From positions 1 to 58,882 of IMG/VR virus record IMGVR_UViG_3300020463_001991: a stretch of 58,882 bases of DNA; one strand, given 5' to 3'. This document shows positions 4,016 through 15,452 of the stretch, piece by piece (positions within the stretch are counted from its first letter, which is position 1; each line of letters starts with the position of its first letter). The DNA is from a virus. Lineage: Duplodnaviria > Caudoviricetes. Position numbers and translations under genes: made by a program. Below the pieces are notes generated by a model. That model had not been told where the DNA came from and did not search any database. It saw only the letters and a program-made list of their open reading frames with translations.

Positions 4016-4242
4016 TGGAACACCCATTAATCAATGATATAGGCGAACTTGACGAACAACAGTTAATGGATAAGATTACAGAGTTAAACGGCAAGTTGAC
4101 TATTGCAATGAGGATGGGTAACCATAGTTTAATCAACCAAGTGAGGATGGCATTGGAATCCTATCAAAGGAAACTAAGAGAAAAGCATGCCGCTGAACGT
4201 AACAAAGACGACAAGTTTGAGGATAAAATAGACATATCATGA
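4015..4242 (+). CDS. Hypothetical protein
   Basis: 75-aa ORF translationally coupled to both neighbours. Confidence 0.7.
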   Translation: MEHPLINDIGELDEQQLMDKITELNGKLTIAMRMGNHSLINQVRMALESYQRKLREKHAAERNKDDKFEDKIDIS

Positions 4243-7940: not shown

Positions 7941-9062
7941 ATGATTAACACACTTTACAAAATTTGGAACATTAAACACGCAGAGGGTGATGAATTCACC
8001 GGCTATGAAAGTGTGTACGACCAGCTGGATAGTTTTGATAAAGCACAATACGATGCTGATCCGCAAGGCACTATTGAAAAGGTATATGACATATATCGCA
8101 GTATTAATCTTGTTCCCATTGTTTACTTTACACATAAAGGCTTAGTTGAAGCAGTTAGTAAATTCAGCAAACTTAACTATAACAATGTTGACAATAGCAA
8201 AATTGGATTGGGCAACAACAGAGGACAAACCATTAACAGATTTTTGTTTCCAAACATGATGACTGCTGAACCAAAAGGCAGAGGATCAAACAGTTTGCAA
8301 GACAGATTTTTGGATGAACGTAAATTAAAACGTGCAATACGTATCTGTTTTGAATTTAGAACTGGTGAAAGATTGTTACGTCCAACACAATTGAGAACTG
8401 CATTAGAACTGGTTACAGGCGAAAACGTTACAAACTTCAAGGCACAAAATGCCAAAGCAATAGCAGAACATCTATGCCCTGTGTTATGGGGCAATGTATA
8501 CGATTACAGTTGCGGATACGGCGGAAGATTATTGGGTATAGGTTCAAGCAACTTCAAATACAATTATATAGGAGTTGAACCCAACACAGAAACAGTGCAA
8601 TACCTAAACTATCTCAACGATATTATAGATGAAGCAACAGGTGTTAGAGGATCTATTGTACAGAGTGTCAGTGAAGAATATCAACCAGAGGATATTGATT
8701 TAGCATTTTCAAGTCCTCCGTATTTTAATTTGGAGAAATATAGCAATGAAAACACACAATGCATGGTCCGTTACAAAACAGAGGACGAGTGGTTTGAAGG
8801 GTATGTTATACCGACTATGGAAAATATTTACAGAGGGCTCAATAGAGAAGGAATCTTCGCCACGAATATCGCCGACTATAAGTCTTACGACCGTAAAGAA
8901 CCCTACGAAGTCACAGAAAGATGGAAAGATGTCGCTAATGGAGTAGGCTTCAAACATGTTGAAACTATTAAAATGATGTTGAATACACGTCCAGGCGTGG
9001 GCAATGATCGTAAACAAGGAAGAGAAAAATGGGAGGGAGTCTATGTCTTCAGAAAAAACTAA
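7941..9062 (+). CDS. Amino-DNA methyltransferase (N4-C/N6-A type)
   Basis: SAM-binding YDYSCGYGGRLLG followed by catalytic motif IV FSSPPYF. Confidence 0.8.
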   Translation: MINTLYKIWNIKHAEGDEFTGYESVYDQLDSFDKAQYDADPQGTIEKVYDIYRSINLVPIVYFTHKGLVEAVSKFSKLNYNNVDNSKIGLGNNRGQTINRFLFPNMMTAEPKGRGSNSLQDRFLDERKLKRAIRICFEFRTGERLLRPTQLRTALELVTGENVTNFKAQNAKAIAEHLCPVLWGNVYDYSCGYGGRLLGIGSSNFKYNYIGVEPNTETVQYLNYLNDIIDEATGVRGSIVQSVSEEYQPEDIDLAFSSPPYFNLEKYSNENTQCMVRYKTEDEWFEGYVIPTMENIYRGLNREGIFATNIADYKSYDRKEPYEVTERWKDVANGVGFKHVETIKMMLNTRPGVGNDRKQGREKWEGVYVFRKN

Positions 9063-9588
9063 ACCAACAGATTACATGCGAACGGTAATGGATTATCCTG
9101 AACCCGGTGTAAACTTCTATGACATTAATAGTTTGTTTGCACAACCTGCATGGAACCAAGTTGCCGCTGAATTATCAGTTGCGGTACAAACAGAATACAA
9201 TCGCACAGGTGATCTCAGTCACGTAGTTGGTATCGAAAGCAGAGGATTTGTTGTTGGTGCGGTACTGGCCAGTGTTATAGGTGTTCCTTTTATAATGGTA
9301 CGTAAAAAAGGTTCTAAGTATCCTGGTAGTCTATTAGAAGAAACTTATTCACTTGAATATGGTGAAGATACACTGGTAATACAAGAAGGTATACTTGGAT
9401 ACACAAACCGTGTATTAATTGCAGATGATCTGGTTGCCACTGGCGGAAGTGCATTAGCAACCAAAAGGCTTGTTGAACAAACAGGAGCAACAGTAGTTGG
9501 CTTTGCGAGTGTGTTGAACTTAGCATATCTAAACACTGATGACATGAAATCACAATCGTTGATAACTTCTGAGGAGATAACAAAATGA
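9043..9588 (+). CDS. apt: Adenine phosphoribosyltransferase
   Basis: DYPEPGVNFYDI, GIESRGF, RKKGS, YSLEYG and PRPP loop IADDLVATGGS. Start placed at ATG 9043 after GGAGGGAG. Confidence 0.9.
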   Translation: MSSEKTKPTDYMRTVMDYPEPGVNFYDINSLFAQPAWNQVAAELSVAVQTEYNRTGDLSHVVGIESRGFVVGAVLASVIGVPFIMVRKKGSKYPGSLLEETYSLEYGEDTLVIQEGILGYTNRVLIADDLVATGGSALATKRLVEQTGATVVGFASVLNLAYLNTDDMKSQSLITSEEITK

Positions 9589-11128: not shown

Positions 11129-11596
11129 ATGAACAAATTAATTAAAAAGGTGTGTAGGATGGACTTAGGCAATCCCATAATGACAGCTCTTGTTGGACTG
11201 GTAGTATTTTATATAGGACTTAAAATGTTCTCAGGTGGTATGAAGTCAATGGGTAACTTGGAACATTTGAACTTCTTTTTAGGTAATCCAATTTATATGT
11301 TTATAGGCGGTATTTTAATGACACTGCTTTGGCAAAGTTCAAGTTTAAGTACAACGGCAATAATTGCACTGGTAGCCTCAGGGGCATTGCCTCTGCCCGC
11401 AGCCATAGCGGCAGTGTTAGGCGCAAACATCGGAACCACCGGCACCATTTGGTTAGCCGGTTTTTTTGTGAGCGATGGTATGCCCAAAGGCGATACACTT
11501 AGGATAGCAATAGCACACACAGGTGCTAACATGTTTATGGCTATAATGTTGTTGCCATGGGTGCACCACATAGCAAGATTTTTGAATAAGTTTTAG
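11129..11596 (+). CDS. Half-size Na+/phosphate cotransporter family membrane protein
   Basis: TLLWQSSSLST and LGANIGTT signatures occur once; hydrophobic helices. Start may be 11159. Confidence 0.85.
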   Translation: MNKLIKKVCRMDLGNPIMTALVGLVVFYIGLKMFSGGMKSMGNLEHLNFFLGNPIYMFIGGILMTLLWQSSSLSTTAIIALVASGALPLPAAIAAVLGANIGTTGTIWLAGFFVSDGMPKGDTLRIAIAHTGANMFMAIMLLPWVHHIARFLNKF

Positions 11597-11763: not shown

Positions 11764-12573
11764 ATGACGCAACTAATAGACCCAAGCAAATTCACAGAGA
11801 CAGTTGGCCTTTTAAGGTCATTTTTTTTGGAAAAAGGATTTCTTGAAGTACACACACAAAACAGATTAAGCATACTAGCCGCATGCGAAGACCCGTTCAA
11901 TGTAGCAACATACAATTATGCAGGCCAAGTATGGCCACTACCGCAAACCGGCCAGATGTGGTTGGAACATGAATTACTAAGTCAGCCCTCAGCAAAGGGC
12001 TTTTTTTGTGTCTCCACATCCTACAGACAAGAGCCAAATGCAATACCAGGCAGACATGATATAATATTTCCAATGTTTGAATTTGAAATGCCAGGCAACA
12101 TAGATGATCTCAAAGCAATGGAACTTGAACTGGTAGACTACTTAGGCTTTGAAAAGCCACTTGAAAAAACTTATGCAGATTGGCAACACTGGTACGGAGT
12201 AGAAGGCGAACTAGAAGCAGAGCATGAAACACAAATGTTCAAAGACTTTGAAACCACAATGATAACAGACTTTCCAGAGTTCACATCACCTTTTTGGAAC
12301 ATGTCACGTAACACAGATGGTACTAGTAAAAAGATAGATGTAATACTAGGTGGTATGGAAACAATAGGTTCAGCAGAACGTAGTACAGACATTATCCAAA
12401 TGAGAGATACCTTTCACACTATCACAGATGGTGCATATAGTAACCTACTGTATGAATTGTTCAGTAAGGATCGTGTTGAAGCAGAACTAGAAGAATTTTT
12501 AAAGTTTGATTTCTTTCCAAGAGTAGGCGGCGGCATAGGTATGACACGTATGATTGCCGCACTAGACAAGTAG
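11764..12573 (+). CDS. Class IIb aminoacyl-tRNA synthetase catalytic core (AsnRS-like) lacking the anticodon-binding domain
   Basis: Motif 1 LRSFFLEKGFLEVHT starts at about residue 17. Also TGQMWLE, motif 2 SYRQEP..GRH..FPMFEFE, ETIGSAER and motif 3 GGGIGMTR. Only 269 aa, with no room for an N-terminal OB-fold. Confidence 0.85.
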   Translation: MTQLIDPSKFTETVGLLRSFFLEKGFLEVHTQNRLSILAACEDPFNVATYNYAGQVWPLPQTGQMWLEHELLSQPSAKGFFCVSTSYRQEPNAIPGRHDIIFPMFEFEMPGNIDDLKAMELELVDYLGFEKPLEKTYADWQHWYGVEGELEAEHETQMFKDFETTMITDFPEFTSPFWNMSRNTDGTSKKIDVILGGMETIGSAERSTDIIQMRDTFHTITDGAYSNLLYELFSKDRVEAELEEFLKFDFFPRVGGGIGMTRMIAALDK

Positions 12574-12579
12574 GATTAT

Positions 12580-12682
12580 TCTGGGGTGGTGAAATTGGTA
12601 GACACGTACGGCTGTTAACCGTATGGTTGAGTGTACTGCAATATATTTAACCGTGTAGGTTCGACTCCTACCCCCAGAGCCA
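12580..12682 (+). tRNA. tRNA-Asn(GTT) with an unusually long variable arm and encoded CCA
   Basis: Acceptor TCTGGGG/CCCCAGA, G73, CCA. D stem GTG/CAC. Anticodon stem TACGG/CCGTA with loop CT-GTT-AA. Variable region 31 nt. T arm GTAGG-TTCGACT-CCTAC. Confidence 0.93.
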
Positions 12683-12697
12683 ACATATAAGTACTTC

Positions 12698-13561
12698 ATG
12701 CGTCCTATACTTCCATTTGTTGAAACCATGATAACCTATGCTTGTAATCTTAGTTGTACAGGTTGTACAAACTATAGTGATTACAATATGAAAGGCAGTG
12801 TACGTTGGGCACAAGGCAAGGAATGGCTTCAAGCATGGATAGAACGTATTAACATTTCAGACTTTGGAATAATGGGCGGTGAACCAACACTAAATCCAGA
12901 ATGCGAACAGTGGATCTATGGAGTACGTTCTCTATTGCCCAACAGTCAAATACGATTTACAACCAATGGTGTAAACTTTCATAAACGGCCAGAAGTATTT
13001 GACTGGTGTGTTGACGTTGGAAATACAGTTTTTAAATTTACACTACACGAAGACAAAACTTACGGCATGGATGCTATAAATTATGTTTTTAAAAAATTTA
13101 AGTGGTCACCAATAACCGAGTATGGTATTAATCGTTGGCTAGGTCCTAACAATACACGTTTTCAAATTAATTCTCCTTTACAATTTTTTAAAACTTATAC
13201 CGGAACGTTCGGCAATATAAAACCACACAATAATAAGGCAAAAGACGCATTTGACATGTGTATACAACAAACCTGTCCGTTGCTCTATGAAGGTAAAATT
13301 TATAAATGCAGTAGCATTGCACTGTTAAATAAAGTATTATCAGATTGGAGACAACCAGTTACTGATGATTGGAAGCCATACACTGACTATGAAGGAATAT
13401 CCGTAAACAGTTCAGACAAAACTATAAAACAGTTCATACAAAACTTTGGAAAAGCACATAAAATTTGTACAATGTGTCCAACAAAACAGGACACTGACAG
13501 TATTATCAATCATCGATCAAATGTGATATCCAAGAAGCAATGGATTAAACTTAATGCTTAA
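12698..13561 (+). CDS. Radical SAM protein
   Basis: CNLSCTGC, GGEP, TTNG, plus C-terminal Cys cluster. Confidence 0.9.
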   Translation: MRPILPFVETMITYACNLSCTGCTNYSDYNMKGSVRWAQGKEWLQAWIERINISDFGIMGGEPTLNPECEQWIYGVRSLLPNSQIRFTTNGVNFHKRPEVFDWCVDVGNTVFKFTLHEDKTYGMDAINYVFKKFKWSPITEYGINRWLGPNNTRFQINSPLQFFKTYTGTFGNIKPHNNKAKDAFDMCIQQTCPLLYEGKIYKCSSIALLNKVLSDWRQPVTDDWKPYTDYEGISVNSSDKTIKQFIQNFGKAHKICTMCPTKQDTDSIINHRSNVISKKQWIKLNA

Positions 13562-15452
13562 CTTATACCTAGTGCAAACTGTTGACAAGTATGGCCCTAA
13601 TAGTTTTTTGCCATTGGCAATAAGTTATCAATGGATGTATGCACAGGATGATGAACAGGTAAAACACAATTACAATGTTGCCGATGTACTAATTGAGAAA
13701 ACAAATCCAAAAGAATATGTAGACGCAATGCATGTTGAACCACACATAGTTGCCATGAGTAACTATGTGTGGAATTGGGAATATAATAAGGAACTGGCCA
13801 AAGAAATAAAAAAAGTATATCCAAACTGTGATATCGTTGTAGGCGGGCCTAATGTCGATAAACGCAATCCCAATTTCTTTGTAGACTTTCCTATGTTTGA
13901 TATAGCAGTGTTAGGCGAAGGTGAACCAGCTTTTAGACAAATCCTGAAACAAAGGCTAATGAATAGAAATTACAACGGTATACCAAGTGTGTTTCCAAAA
14001 GGCGGAGATATATGCAATTTACCAACACGTTTCCGAGAGCTTGAAACCATACCATCACCGATACTGAATGGATTTTATGATATGATAATCGATAAGGTCG
14101 AATCTAAACACGGTAAACAGATGTGGCAAGTAACCTACGAAACACTACGAGGGTGTCCGTATCAATGTGCATTCTGCGACATAGGTGATTTGTATTGGAA
14201 TAAAATTGCTAAATTTGACATGCCACGCATTGAAGCAGAAATAGATTGGATGGCACGTAGAGAAATTGAATATGTTGGTGTATGCGATAGCAATTGGGGA
14301 ATGTTACAACGCGATTTAGATATCACTGCGTATGTAATTAAAAAGAAGCAACAAACTGGCTATCCAAAGTTTTGGGACGTCACCTGGGCCAAAACAAACA
14401 GCGAAAACATTTATCAAATTGCAAAGATGGATAAAGACGCAGACACCAGACTGTTTAAAGGCGTGACTTTTGCTATGCAAAGTCTAAATCCAGCAACACA
14501 GAAAGCAAGTAAACGTGTAAATTTAAAAAGTAATGAAGCACTTACGTACATGAACAAGTACCAAGAAGAGAACATACCTACATACAGTGAACTAATATGG
14601 CCTATGCCAGATGAAACCTATGACACTTTAAAGGATGGTATTCAACAACTTGTTGACCTTGGACAAAAAAGTTTTTTAATGGTGCATCCATTGGTTCTTA
14701 CATTCAACGCAACAATGGGTCAAAAACATTACATAGAAGAATACGGTTTAAAATGGAAAGAAGTGCCACTGGACACATACTACTTGAGTGTTGATGATTT
14801 AGAAAACTATATTGTAGAAAAAACAATGGGTGTTTATGCTACCAATACTGCTGATGAAGTGCTAACCATGCGTGGTAATTTGTTCTCATACTTGTTTATA
14901 ACCATGTACTATTATGGATGGGCACACTATCTTATGGAATACATGCAAAACAAACACGATATAAAACATGTAGACTTTATCGAAAGTATGCTTAATTATT
15001 TCTATACTAAAAACTGTCTAATAGGAAGAGAAATACGTGCCACTGAAAAACACATGCACGATGTGTTTTACGGAGATAGTTTCTGGGGCAGACAAGTTTT
15101 AGAAAACGATATCTATTGGGAATACAAAGGTGCCACTAGTGTAGTCTTTCATCAAAACAGACAGAAGCTAAAGTATGAGCTTATAGATTTTGTATATGAA
15201 AAATACGAGATTGATGTATCAGATGTTGTTGAATTTAATATACACATGTGTAAAGATCCAAATATAAAATATCCTTATAATATAAAAGTTACAAAAGATA
15301 CAAGCACGCATTGCCTTAATACTGATAGCACACACTTACAAATTGATCATTGGGATAAGGAAGCACTTGATGAACGCAAGTTTTATCATGTTGGCTACCA
15401 CTGGCAAAGAAAAAATCACTACTGGAAATGCACTCCAACTACAGTAGATTAG
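13554..15452 (+). CDS. B12-binding-domain radical SAM protein
   Basis: N-terminal SNYVWN...IVVGGP...GEGE cobalamin-binding-like domain; RGCPYQCAFC. Confidence 0.85.
   Translation: MLNLYLVQTVDKYGPNSFLPLAISYQWMYAQDDEQVKHNYNVADVLIEKTNPKEYVDAMHVEPHIVAMSNYVWNWEYNKELAKEIKKVYPNCDIVVGGPNVDKRNPNFFVDFPMFDIAVLGEGEPAFRQILKQRLMNRNYNGIPSVFPKGGDICNLPTRFRELETIPSPILNGFYDMIIDKVESKHGKQMWQVTYETLRGCPYQCAFCDIGDLYWNKIAKFDMPRIEAEIDWMARREIEYVGVCDSNWGMLQRDLDITAYVIKKKQQTGYPKFWDVTWAKTNSENIYQIAKMDKDADTRLFKGVTFAMQSLNPATQKASKRVNLKSNEALTYMNKYQEENIPTYSELIWPMPDETYDTLKDGIQQLVDLGQKSFLMVHPLVLTFNATMGQKHYIEEYGLKWKEVPLDTYYLSVDDLENYIVEKTMGVYATNTADEVLTMRGNLFSYLFITMYYYGWAHYLMEYMQNKHDIKHVDFIESMLNYFYTKNCLIGREIRATEKHMHDVFYGDSFWGRQVLENDIYWEYKGATSVVFHQNRQKLKYELIDFVYEKYEIDVSDVVEFNIHMCKDPNIKYPYNIKVTKDTSTHCLNTDSTHLQIDHWDKEALDERKFYHVGYHWQRKNHYWKCTPTTVD

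Follow-up and report, generated by a model that had tools for sequence, protein, structure and literature searches.

An asparaginyl-tRNA synthetase-like catalytic core and a long-arm tRNA(GUU) form a cassette in marine T4-like cyanophages

A viral DNA stretch of 58,882 nucleotides (nt), covering positions 1 to 58,882 of IMG/VR record IMGVR_UViG_3300020463_001991 (Duplodnaviria; Caudoviricetes) and referred to below as the window, was found to encode a class IIb catalytic core resembling asparaginyl-tRNA synthetase (AsnRS) without an anticodon-binding domain, followed after 6 nt by a complete tRNA with a GUU anticodon and a long variable arm. Cores of AsnRS type homologous to this open reading frame (ORF; positions 11764-12573) are called family X. 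In marine T4-like cyanophages, family X and the long-arm tRNA constitute a fixed cassette. The reading put forward here, which we favour tentatively, is that the enzyme was ancestrally a stand-alone one that activates asparagine (Asn), and that in these phages it would also serve a captive tRNA. As judged from their sequences, enzyme and tRNA both point to asparagine, and two strong signals diverge, namely the linkage of enzyme and tRNA in the phages and a tRNA-independent, pyrimidine-linked role suggested for the enzyme in cells. The features of the locus are as follows.

Positions 11764-12573, plus strand: AsnRS-like class IIb catalytic core (family X) without an anticodon-binding domain; 269 amino acids, ATG start, TAG stop.
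Positions 12574-12579, plus strand: 6-nt spacer from the ORF stop to the tRNA, with no terminator-like site in between.
Positions 12580-12682, plus strand: tRNA(GUU) of 100 nt plus encoded CCA (103 nt), type II with a long arm and a tRNA-Leu-like body.
Positions 12580-12586, plus strand: 5' strand of the acceptor stem (partner strand 12672-12678).
Positions 12612-12618, plus strand: anticodon loop CTGTTAA, with GTT at 12614-12616; position 37 is A in this tRNA.
Positions 12624-12654, plus strand: variable region of 31 nt, with an 11-bp stem (12625-12635/12642-12652) and a 6-nt loop, CTGCAA.
Positions 12679-12682, plus strand: discriminator G73 and encoded CCA (12680-12682).

The only kind of Pfam match obtained for the ORF was to the core of the class II D/K/N synthetases (PF00152; E 1.2e-15, residues 13-267 against positions 28-292 of the 308 in the profile), and the AsnA family PF03590 was absent from its Pfam matches. 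The protein was modelled by AlphaFold from an alignment of 53 diverse relatives with a predicted local distance difference test (pLDDT) score of 96.5, and the whole model superposed on residues 230-529 of human AsnRS and 119-415 of Pyrococcus horikoshii AsnRS, that is, on the catalytic C-terminal part only. Class II motifs 1, 2 and 3 were present in family X according to Pfam, the alignments and the fold. Aligned with canonical AsnRS sequences from two genomes in which family X also occurs, X lacked the oligonucleotide-binding (OB) domain and the hinge, had a much shorter insertion between motifs 2 and 3 and ended without a C-terminal tail past motif 3. When known structures were ranked against the model, AsnRS catalytic domains came first (Z 27.8-26.8, approximately 246 residues aligned, root mean square deviation 2.1-2.2), followed by archaeal and eukaryotic aspartyl-tRNA synthetase (AspRS; Z 26.6-25), archaeal asparagine synthetase A (AS-AR; 24.4-23.7) and GenX (24.1). 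The order agreed with that obtained by comparing the family profile with PDB sequences (AsnRS E 3.5e-15, archaeal AspRS 7e-13, AS-AR 7e-7 and EpmA 1e-4). The pocket motif QTGQMWLE resembled QSSQLYLE of AsnRS and was unlike QSPQLYKQ of AspRS, the motif 2 loop was equal in length to that of AsnRS, and the Arg of GSAER was aligned with the Arg of GGSQRE in AsnRS. Both the Glu of GQxxLE and the Arg of GSxER, two Asn-type pocket residues, thus aligned with AsnRS, while AspRS has K-Q at the first of the two sites. The initial annotation, made from the letters alone, had described a core of 269 residues with motifs 1-3, no OB-fold and an AsnRS-like rather than AspRS-like pocket, all of which was borne out by these comparisons.

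Curated NCBIfam models (asnS, aspS, lysS, AS-A and EpmA) all matched far under their cut-offs, with 26.9 bits against 342.6 for asnS (TIGR00457), 20.5 against 389 for AS-A (NF005055), and 14.8 against 286.9 and 15.7 against 264 for the two EpmA models (TIGR00462 and NF006828, respectively). Matches in the ESM Atlas were to 'tRNA ligase family' clusters only, and database labels were generic ('tRNA ligase' in phage records, 'amino acid--tRNA ligase-related protein' or 'aspartyl/asparaginyl-tRNA synthetase' elsewhere). Because the ATP site and an AsnRS-type pocket are retained, family X most likely still activates asparagine as the adenylate.

The tRNA was recognised by the Rfam tRNA model RF00005 (53.7 bits with a gathering score of 29, E 1e-10), the match containing 28 inserted nt in its variable region, and was the sole tRNA within the 58.9-kb record. 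The silence of ARAGORN on the whole window was considered as evidence against a tRNA and set aside as a limit of that tool with long arms, since Rfam and our own covariance model detect these tRNAs; one homologous tRNA was mislabelled by ARAGORN as tRNA-Asp(atc). Statistics on conservation and covariation rest on 59 distinct homologous sequences, among which 97.6% of cells were paired and 22 of 31 pairs varied on both sides. None of 500 shuffles attained these values, and the pairing of the cloverleaf and extra arm is therefore beyond chance, with strong support from covariation for the cloverleaf as well as for the basal part of the extra arm. The first base pair (U1-A72), G73 and GUU were each invariant (59/59; for GUU this figure comes from a parser that demanded GTT), while acceptor pairs 2-7 covaried around them. 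Six complete loci without a hit were re-searched with a tRNA model, and no tRNA was found beside the ORF in any of the six. The variable region ranged from 12 to 37 nt in two length classes (12-17 and 28-37 nt), and CCA was encoded in 76 of 79 tRNAs, being missing in those of phages P-SSM2, P-SSM5 and P-SSM7. Anticodon-loop positions 32, 33, 37 and 38 were variable around the fixed GUU: position 37 was U in 40, C in 6 and A in 13 tRNAs (pyrimidine in 46/59), and position 33 was other than U in 3 of the 59, both being departures from an ordinary tRNA-Asn that serves in decoding. Codons that start with A are expected to be read less well when position 37 is a pyrimidine. A complete long-arm GTT tRNA located 6 nt past the stop, with U1-A72, G73 and an 11-bp arm, had already been read from the letters, and both Rfam and covariation agree with it.

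When five cellular genomes were searched with the covariance model of the phage tRNA, all ten best-scoring loci retrieved were tRNA-Leu genes, which argues that the body of the phage tRNA is Leu-like. According to passages in Giegé and Eriani 2023 (PMC9976931), bacterial Asn identity is conferred by the anticodon and G73, and G73 is an antideterminant against LeuRS; U1-A72 favours amidation by GatCAB, as stated in part of Bailly et al. 2006 (PMC1635274). Going by its sequence, the phage tRNA combines a foreign body with every asparagine identity element of the host. In P-SSM7 (locus L001, 3871-3943) and in the huge phage LR756501 (locus L207, 1338-1490), ARAGORN called tRNA-Leu genes of 73-75 nt with the anticodons taa and tag; as called, these Leu tRNAs would lack the long arm typical of their kind and so be the mirror image of the long-armed tRNA-Asn.

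Linkage of the two genes was determined in both directions. A relative was encoded by 598 of 599 candidate stretches in IMG/VR, of which the best 80 were examined, and the forward sample comprised 86 sources (the window and 85 loci) in which a GUU tRNA was sought up to 450 nt downstream. Such a tRNA was present in 79 of the 86, mostly 4-10 nt past the stop, and the seven sources without it were two huge phages, one contig that ended inside the tRNA and four close relatives. For the reverse direction IMG/VR was scanned with the tRNA pattern, giving at least 120 listed loci; among the matches listed, X was directly upstream in 116 of 117 assessable loci, three more were too short, and the one locus without X (L327) does not resemble this long-arm tRNA. 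ORFs flanking the cassette belonged to 41 families upstream and 36 downstream, and given about 40 different flanking families on each side, X and the tRNA therefore move together. Homologues with 65-68% identity, annotated 'tRNA ligase', were found in the Prochlorococcus phages P-SSM7, P-SSM2 and P-SSM5, each followed by a tRNA-Asn of 85-88 nt, which in the complete genomes of P-SSM2 and P-SSM5 was the only tRNA detected by Rfam. The asymmetry of the linkage (X without the tRNA in three lineages, the tRNA not found without X) fits a tRNA that depends on X. An ordinary tRNA that supplements translation was rejected as a reading, since P-SSM2 and P-SSM5 have no tRNA besides that of the cassette and the searches yielded no case of it lacking X.

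A single transcript is implied by the spacing of 4-10 nt without a terminator. Assembled contigs from RNA libraries carried relatives of the ORF and the tRNA; they cover both genes and the junction in part, and one of them crosses the junction. This is weak evidence for expression because of possible DNA carry-over. A promoter scan at the locus gave nothing over shuffled expectation.

Some further observations on the cassette and its surroundings were made. At seven loci (L009-L011, L041, L044, L048 and L076) the tRNA starts 64-172 nt past the stop of the extended tblastn frame, which ends later there than elsewhere; the protein may be extended at its C-terminus in these cases, or a small additional ORF may be present. 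In the P-SSM2 record (AY939844.2), tRNA-Asn PSSM2_199 is annotated at 164094-164179, within the coding sequence PSSM2_205, whereas its true position is 162083-162168, directly after the 'tRNA ligase' gene; the coordinates of the annotation appear to be offset. Directly downstream of the cassette in the window (12698-15452) are two radical SAM genes, one of which resembles a B12-binding C-methyltransferase of the KedN5 family (221 bits, under cut-off). Upstream lie apt (9004-9588) and a 155-residue fragment of a Na/Pi-cotransporter (11129-11596); this phosphoribosyltransferase gene was considered as pyrE and rejected, being apt.

Among known systems, the AsnRS catalytic domain is thus nearest to X. 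AS-AR (PDB 3P8T/3REU) and the E. coli-type AsnA are, like X, stand-alone cores of similar size without an anticodon domain; AS-AR is, however, farther from X than AsnRS is (E 7e-7 versus 3.5e-15), and no pairing with a tRNA is known for AS-AR or AsnA. EpmA/GenX (PoxA), a LysRS-like ligase of elongation factor P (EF-P), is likewise a truncated class IIb core, with a non-canonical acceptor (Z 24.1 against X), but its pocket is LysRS-like, while that of X is of AsnRS type, and no link of X to EF-P was seen. On the RNA side, the long variable arm and the 3-bp D stem of the phage tRNA are those of type II tRNAs (Leu, Ser and bacterial Tyr), and it differs from tRNA-Leu by G73 in place of A73, GUU, U1-A72 and an arm region of 12-37 nt. 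With canonical bacterial tRNA-Asn it has GUU, G73 and U1-A72 in common, and it differs by its variable region of that length, its Leu-like D arm and the frequent pyrimidine at position 37, where the canonical tRNA has a purine (t6A). Long arms together with mismatched anticodons also occur in nematode V-arm tRNAs and in allo-tRNAs.

Relatives of X made up more than 8000 protein clusters at 90% identity, which is a lower bound, and an exhaustive HMMER search returned only 689 clusters at E <= 1e-3, so that the family is compact. It was present on contigs of metagenome-assembled genomes (MAGs) assigned to Bacteroidota, Chlamydiota, Dependentiae, the candidate phyla radiation (CPR), DPANN, Alphaproteobacteria and Myxococcota, with gene contexts of chromosomal type in those MAG loci whose neighbours were scanned, and also in giant-virus bins, other viral contigs and huge phages. 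Scans of IMG/VR for distant members with the queries P0234 and P0163 gave no relatives. In a FastTree phylogeny a long stem branch separated family X from AsnRS cores, and the tRNA-linked rows formed one derived clade of 37 (support 94), of which 33 had the tRNA and four did not; the latter imply three losses. By this tree, family X is older than its link to the tRNA, and most of it is without such a tRNA. Five cellular carrier genomes, searched whole, contained ordinary tRNA-Asn only, and one huge phage had three ordinary tRNA-Asn genes elsewhere in its genome. A locus in an unclassified bacterial MAG (L161, 45% identity) has an ordinary 72-nt tRNA-Asn at 4021-4092, about 200 nt downstream of X (ORF end 3816), and represents a second, independent adjacency to tRNA-Asn. 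Several marine MAG contigs (labelled Legionellales, Flavobacteriaceae, Poseidoniia and others) were identical or nearly identical to cassette-bearing phage contigs in IMG/VR, and the cassette contigs in marine MAGs (L087-L093 and L123) are probably phage contigs binned into cellular MAGs.

Gene neighbourhoods in cells pointed to pyrimidine synthesis. X was flanked by 120 ORFs at 69 loci (L094-L163 minus L123) from MAG assemblies with a cellular taxon as their assignment; of these ORFs, eight matched DHO_dh (dihydroorotate dehydrogenase) and three OMPdecase (OMP decarboxylase, as a pyrE-pyrF fusion), in at least five lineages, and 14 matched PEPCK, all in related Bacteroidota genomes. Four of the 120 were LigT-like 2H phosphoesterases/2'-5' RNA ligases, a family of RNA-end processing. 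The content of pathway genes was determined in 11 carrier genomes, several of which are incomplete MAGs and whose lineages are partly related, as follows.

pyrB (TIGR00670) over cut-off: none of the 11 carriers; all 14 controls; among non-carriers, 72 of 79 from one order and 48 of 59 from one family.
pyrC, both types, over cut-off: 0 of 11 carriers; 51 of 59 non-carriers with a match.
pyrD (PF01180): 10 of 11 carriers.
pyrF (PF00215): 10 of 11 carriers.
carB (TIGR01369): 4 of 11 carriers.

Some sub-threshold pyrC-like matches adjoin second PF01180 genes in carriers, and the sub-threshold matches may be dihydropyrimidinases. The location of X near pyrD or pyrE-pyrF, together with the missing pyrB and pyrC, suggests an undescribed entry into pyrimidine synthesis. 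Beside distant viral copies of X, no pyrimidine gene was found in 44 flanking ORFs. No consistent pattern was seen among carriers for asnS, asnB and gatB; asnB was present in two of the first five carriers, and AsnA in none of them. X as the sole AsnRS of the cell was ruled out, three of the five cellular carriers checked having a canonical asnS. One carrier genome (G004, 1.4 Mb) had no canonical asnS, and its gatB was broken by many stop codons.

Taken together, these data are best explained, in our tentative view, as follows. Family X would consist of old, compact cores derived from AsnRS and stripped of the anticodon-binding domain, which work alone in cells, giant viruses and huge phages. 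In cells without pyrB and pyrC, X would feed the late pyrimidine pathway, a role suggested by the genes beside X and by the gaps in the pathway. One clade of marine T4-like cyanophages would have gained, at its base, a Leu-bodied, long-arm tRNA bearing Asn marks next to X, since when the two would have travelled as one cassette. In these phages X would most likely pass activated asparagine to the acceptor end of the captive tRNA, of which G73 and the 1-72 pair would be the parts open to recognition by a catalytic core on its own. Class II enzymes approach a tRNA from the side on which its extra arm lies. The outcome would be a private supply of Asn-tRNA, with the tRNA-independent activity of X kept.

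Several observations weigh against a dedicated partnership of this kind. An adjacent long-arm tRNA was absent from all of 72 MAG loci other than six on marine phage-like contigs (at least 63% identity), from 14 distant viral loci and from two huge-phage loci. On the tree, the tRNA joined once, in a derived clade, as a late and single link, and the stem branches of that clade (0.14 and 0.16 changes per column) are in the range of internal branches. Phage X proteins are very acidic and exceed the cellular members in this respect (average net charge of -19 for n=82, versus -11.7 for n=58), and no basic surface has therefore been gained. The canonical asnS in three of five carriers adds to this, and the cellular evidence as a whole points to metabolism rather than translation. 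Finally, since GUU and G73 are sufficient for bacterial AsnRS identity, as given in passages of PMC9976931, the host enzyme could charge the tRNA without X. The co-evolved pair proposed in the initial annotation consequently holds in part: the two-way linkage in cyanophages is tight (79/86, and 116/117 of the loci listed) and homologues there are syntenic with the long-arm tRNA-Asn, while the family is not defined by the tRNA and synteny fails at the other MAG, distant viral and huge-phage loci. Its further proposal, that both partners had deviated together from the start, is contradicted by the gain of the tRNA once, in a derived clade.

The main rival, which we consider unlikely though worth serious attention, is that X is purely metabolic, an ATP-dependent ligase that acts on Asn or an aspartate-derived substrate to give dihydroorotate or another pyrimidine precursor, and that the host charges the tRNA; the link between X and the tRNA would then reflect asparagine economy (an extra tRNA-Asn shielding translation during an Asn drain) or a shared shuffling cassette. 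This would account for the DHO_dh (8/120) and OMPdecase (3/120) neighbours in at least five lineages, for carriers with pyrD and pyrF (10/11 each) and sometimes carB (4/11) but with neither pyrB nor pyrC (0/11), for intact X without the tRNA in three phage lineages, and for a tRNA in which every host identity element is kept. Other nucleotide genes near X in the window, for example apt (9004-9588), are also consistent with it. It leaves unexplained, however, the long arm, the Leu-like body and the pyrimidine at position 37, as well as a tRNA that was not found apart from X and is the only one of P-SSM2 and P-SSM5; moreover, the proposed chemistry is hypothetical, and pyrimidine genes accounted for 0 of the 44 ORFs flanking distant viral copies. 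A combination of the two roles, to which we assign a distinctly low probability on these comparative data, would have X as a one-enzyme pyrimidine shortcut (Asn and CO2/bicarbonate to dihydroorotate) together with an X-dependent, Leu-bodied tRNA(GUU) in cyanophages. The shortcut could proceed, for example, via Asn-AMP and an N-carboxyanhydride, and would replace carbamoyl-phosphate synthetase, pyrB and pyrC. If true, one cassette would provide the phage with a feedback-free pyrimidine supply and a private Asn-tRNA.

An orthogonal, anticodon-independent pair that evades defence, keeping up Asn decoding under an attack on the tRNA-Asn of the host or on the charging of that tRNA (anticodon nucleases being one example), seems improbable. 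Positions 32, 33, 37 and 38 do vary around a fixed GUU, and the linkage of enzyme and tRNA is tight. Since the full host identity set is retained, however, the design of the tRNA is not an orthogonal one; in addition, A-starting codons should be decoded less well with a pyrimidine at position 37, no defence or nuclease context was found, and most of family X is without a linked tRNA. Phage tRNAs with changed anticodon loops that evade host tRNA nucleases are on record, as described in part of PMC10264068, which would provide a precedent. Both orthogonality and anticodon-blindness had been proposed in the initial annotation, and with the full host identity set retained (GUU, G73 and U1-A72, 59/59), neither is indicated.

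We likewise give little credence to X being an asparagine synthetase of AS-AR/AsnA type (aspartate, NH3 and ATP to Asn), placed beside a tRNA-Asn to raise the supply of Asn. The architecture of AS-AR is shared (an AsnRS/AspRS core of approximately 290 residues without an anticodon domain, Z 24.4), and the scarcity of asnB (just two of the first five carriers) and lack of AsnA in those carriers would leave room for such an activity. Against this, X is nearer to AsnRS than to AS-AR by both sequence and structure, the AS-A model reached 20.5 bits with a cut-off of 389, and neither the pyrD/pyrEF neighbours, the pyrB/pyrC gap nor the odd tRNA would be explained. That the tRNA is not charged by X at all and instead serves in regulation, as a decoy, as a target of modification or in the processing or stability of the X transcript would fit the pyrimidine at position 37 (46/59), the occasional non-U at position 33, the single transcript implied by a 4-10 nt spacing without a terminator, and the precedents of GluQRS and EpmA, truncated synthetase paralogues that modify a tRNA or a tRNA mimic, but the cloverleaf, acceptor end, encoded CCA and GUU all show the conservation of a tRNA that can be charged and decodes, and this reading is hardly to be expected.

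No description of the enzyme-tRNA pair or of a pyrimidine role was found in the literature searched (subscription journals and supplements lay outside it), and in part of Sullivan et al. 2010 (PMC3037559) the 'tRNA ligase' is merely listed as a sporadic gene. The pair is real and widespread, though apparently unstudied, and the X gene is very common in the ocean; because the pair is present in the cultured phages P-SSM2, P-SSM5 and P-SSM7, it is directly testable. If the enzyme does charge its captive tRNA, a naturally minimal class II core that works without reading the anticodon would add a novel mode of tRNA recognition and offer code engineering a compact module. Carriers that keep pyrD, pyrE and pyrF without pyrB and pyrC point, for Bacteroidota, Chlamydiota, CPR and DPANN, to a way into pyrimidine synthesis that has not been described, and possibly to a viral bypass of the feedback control that hosts exert on this pathway.

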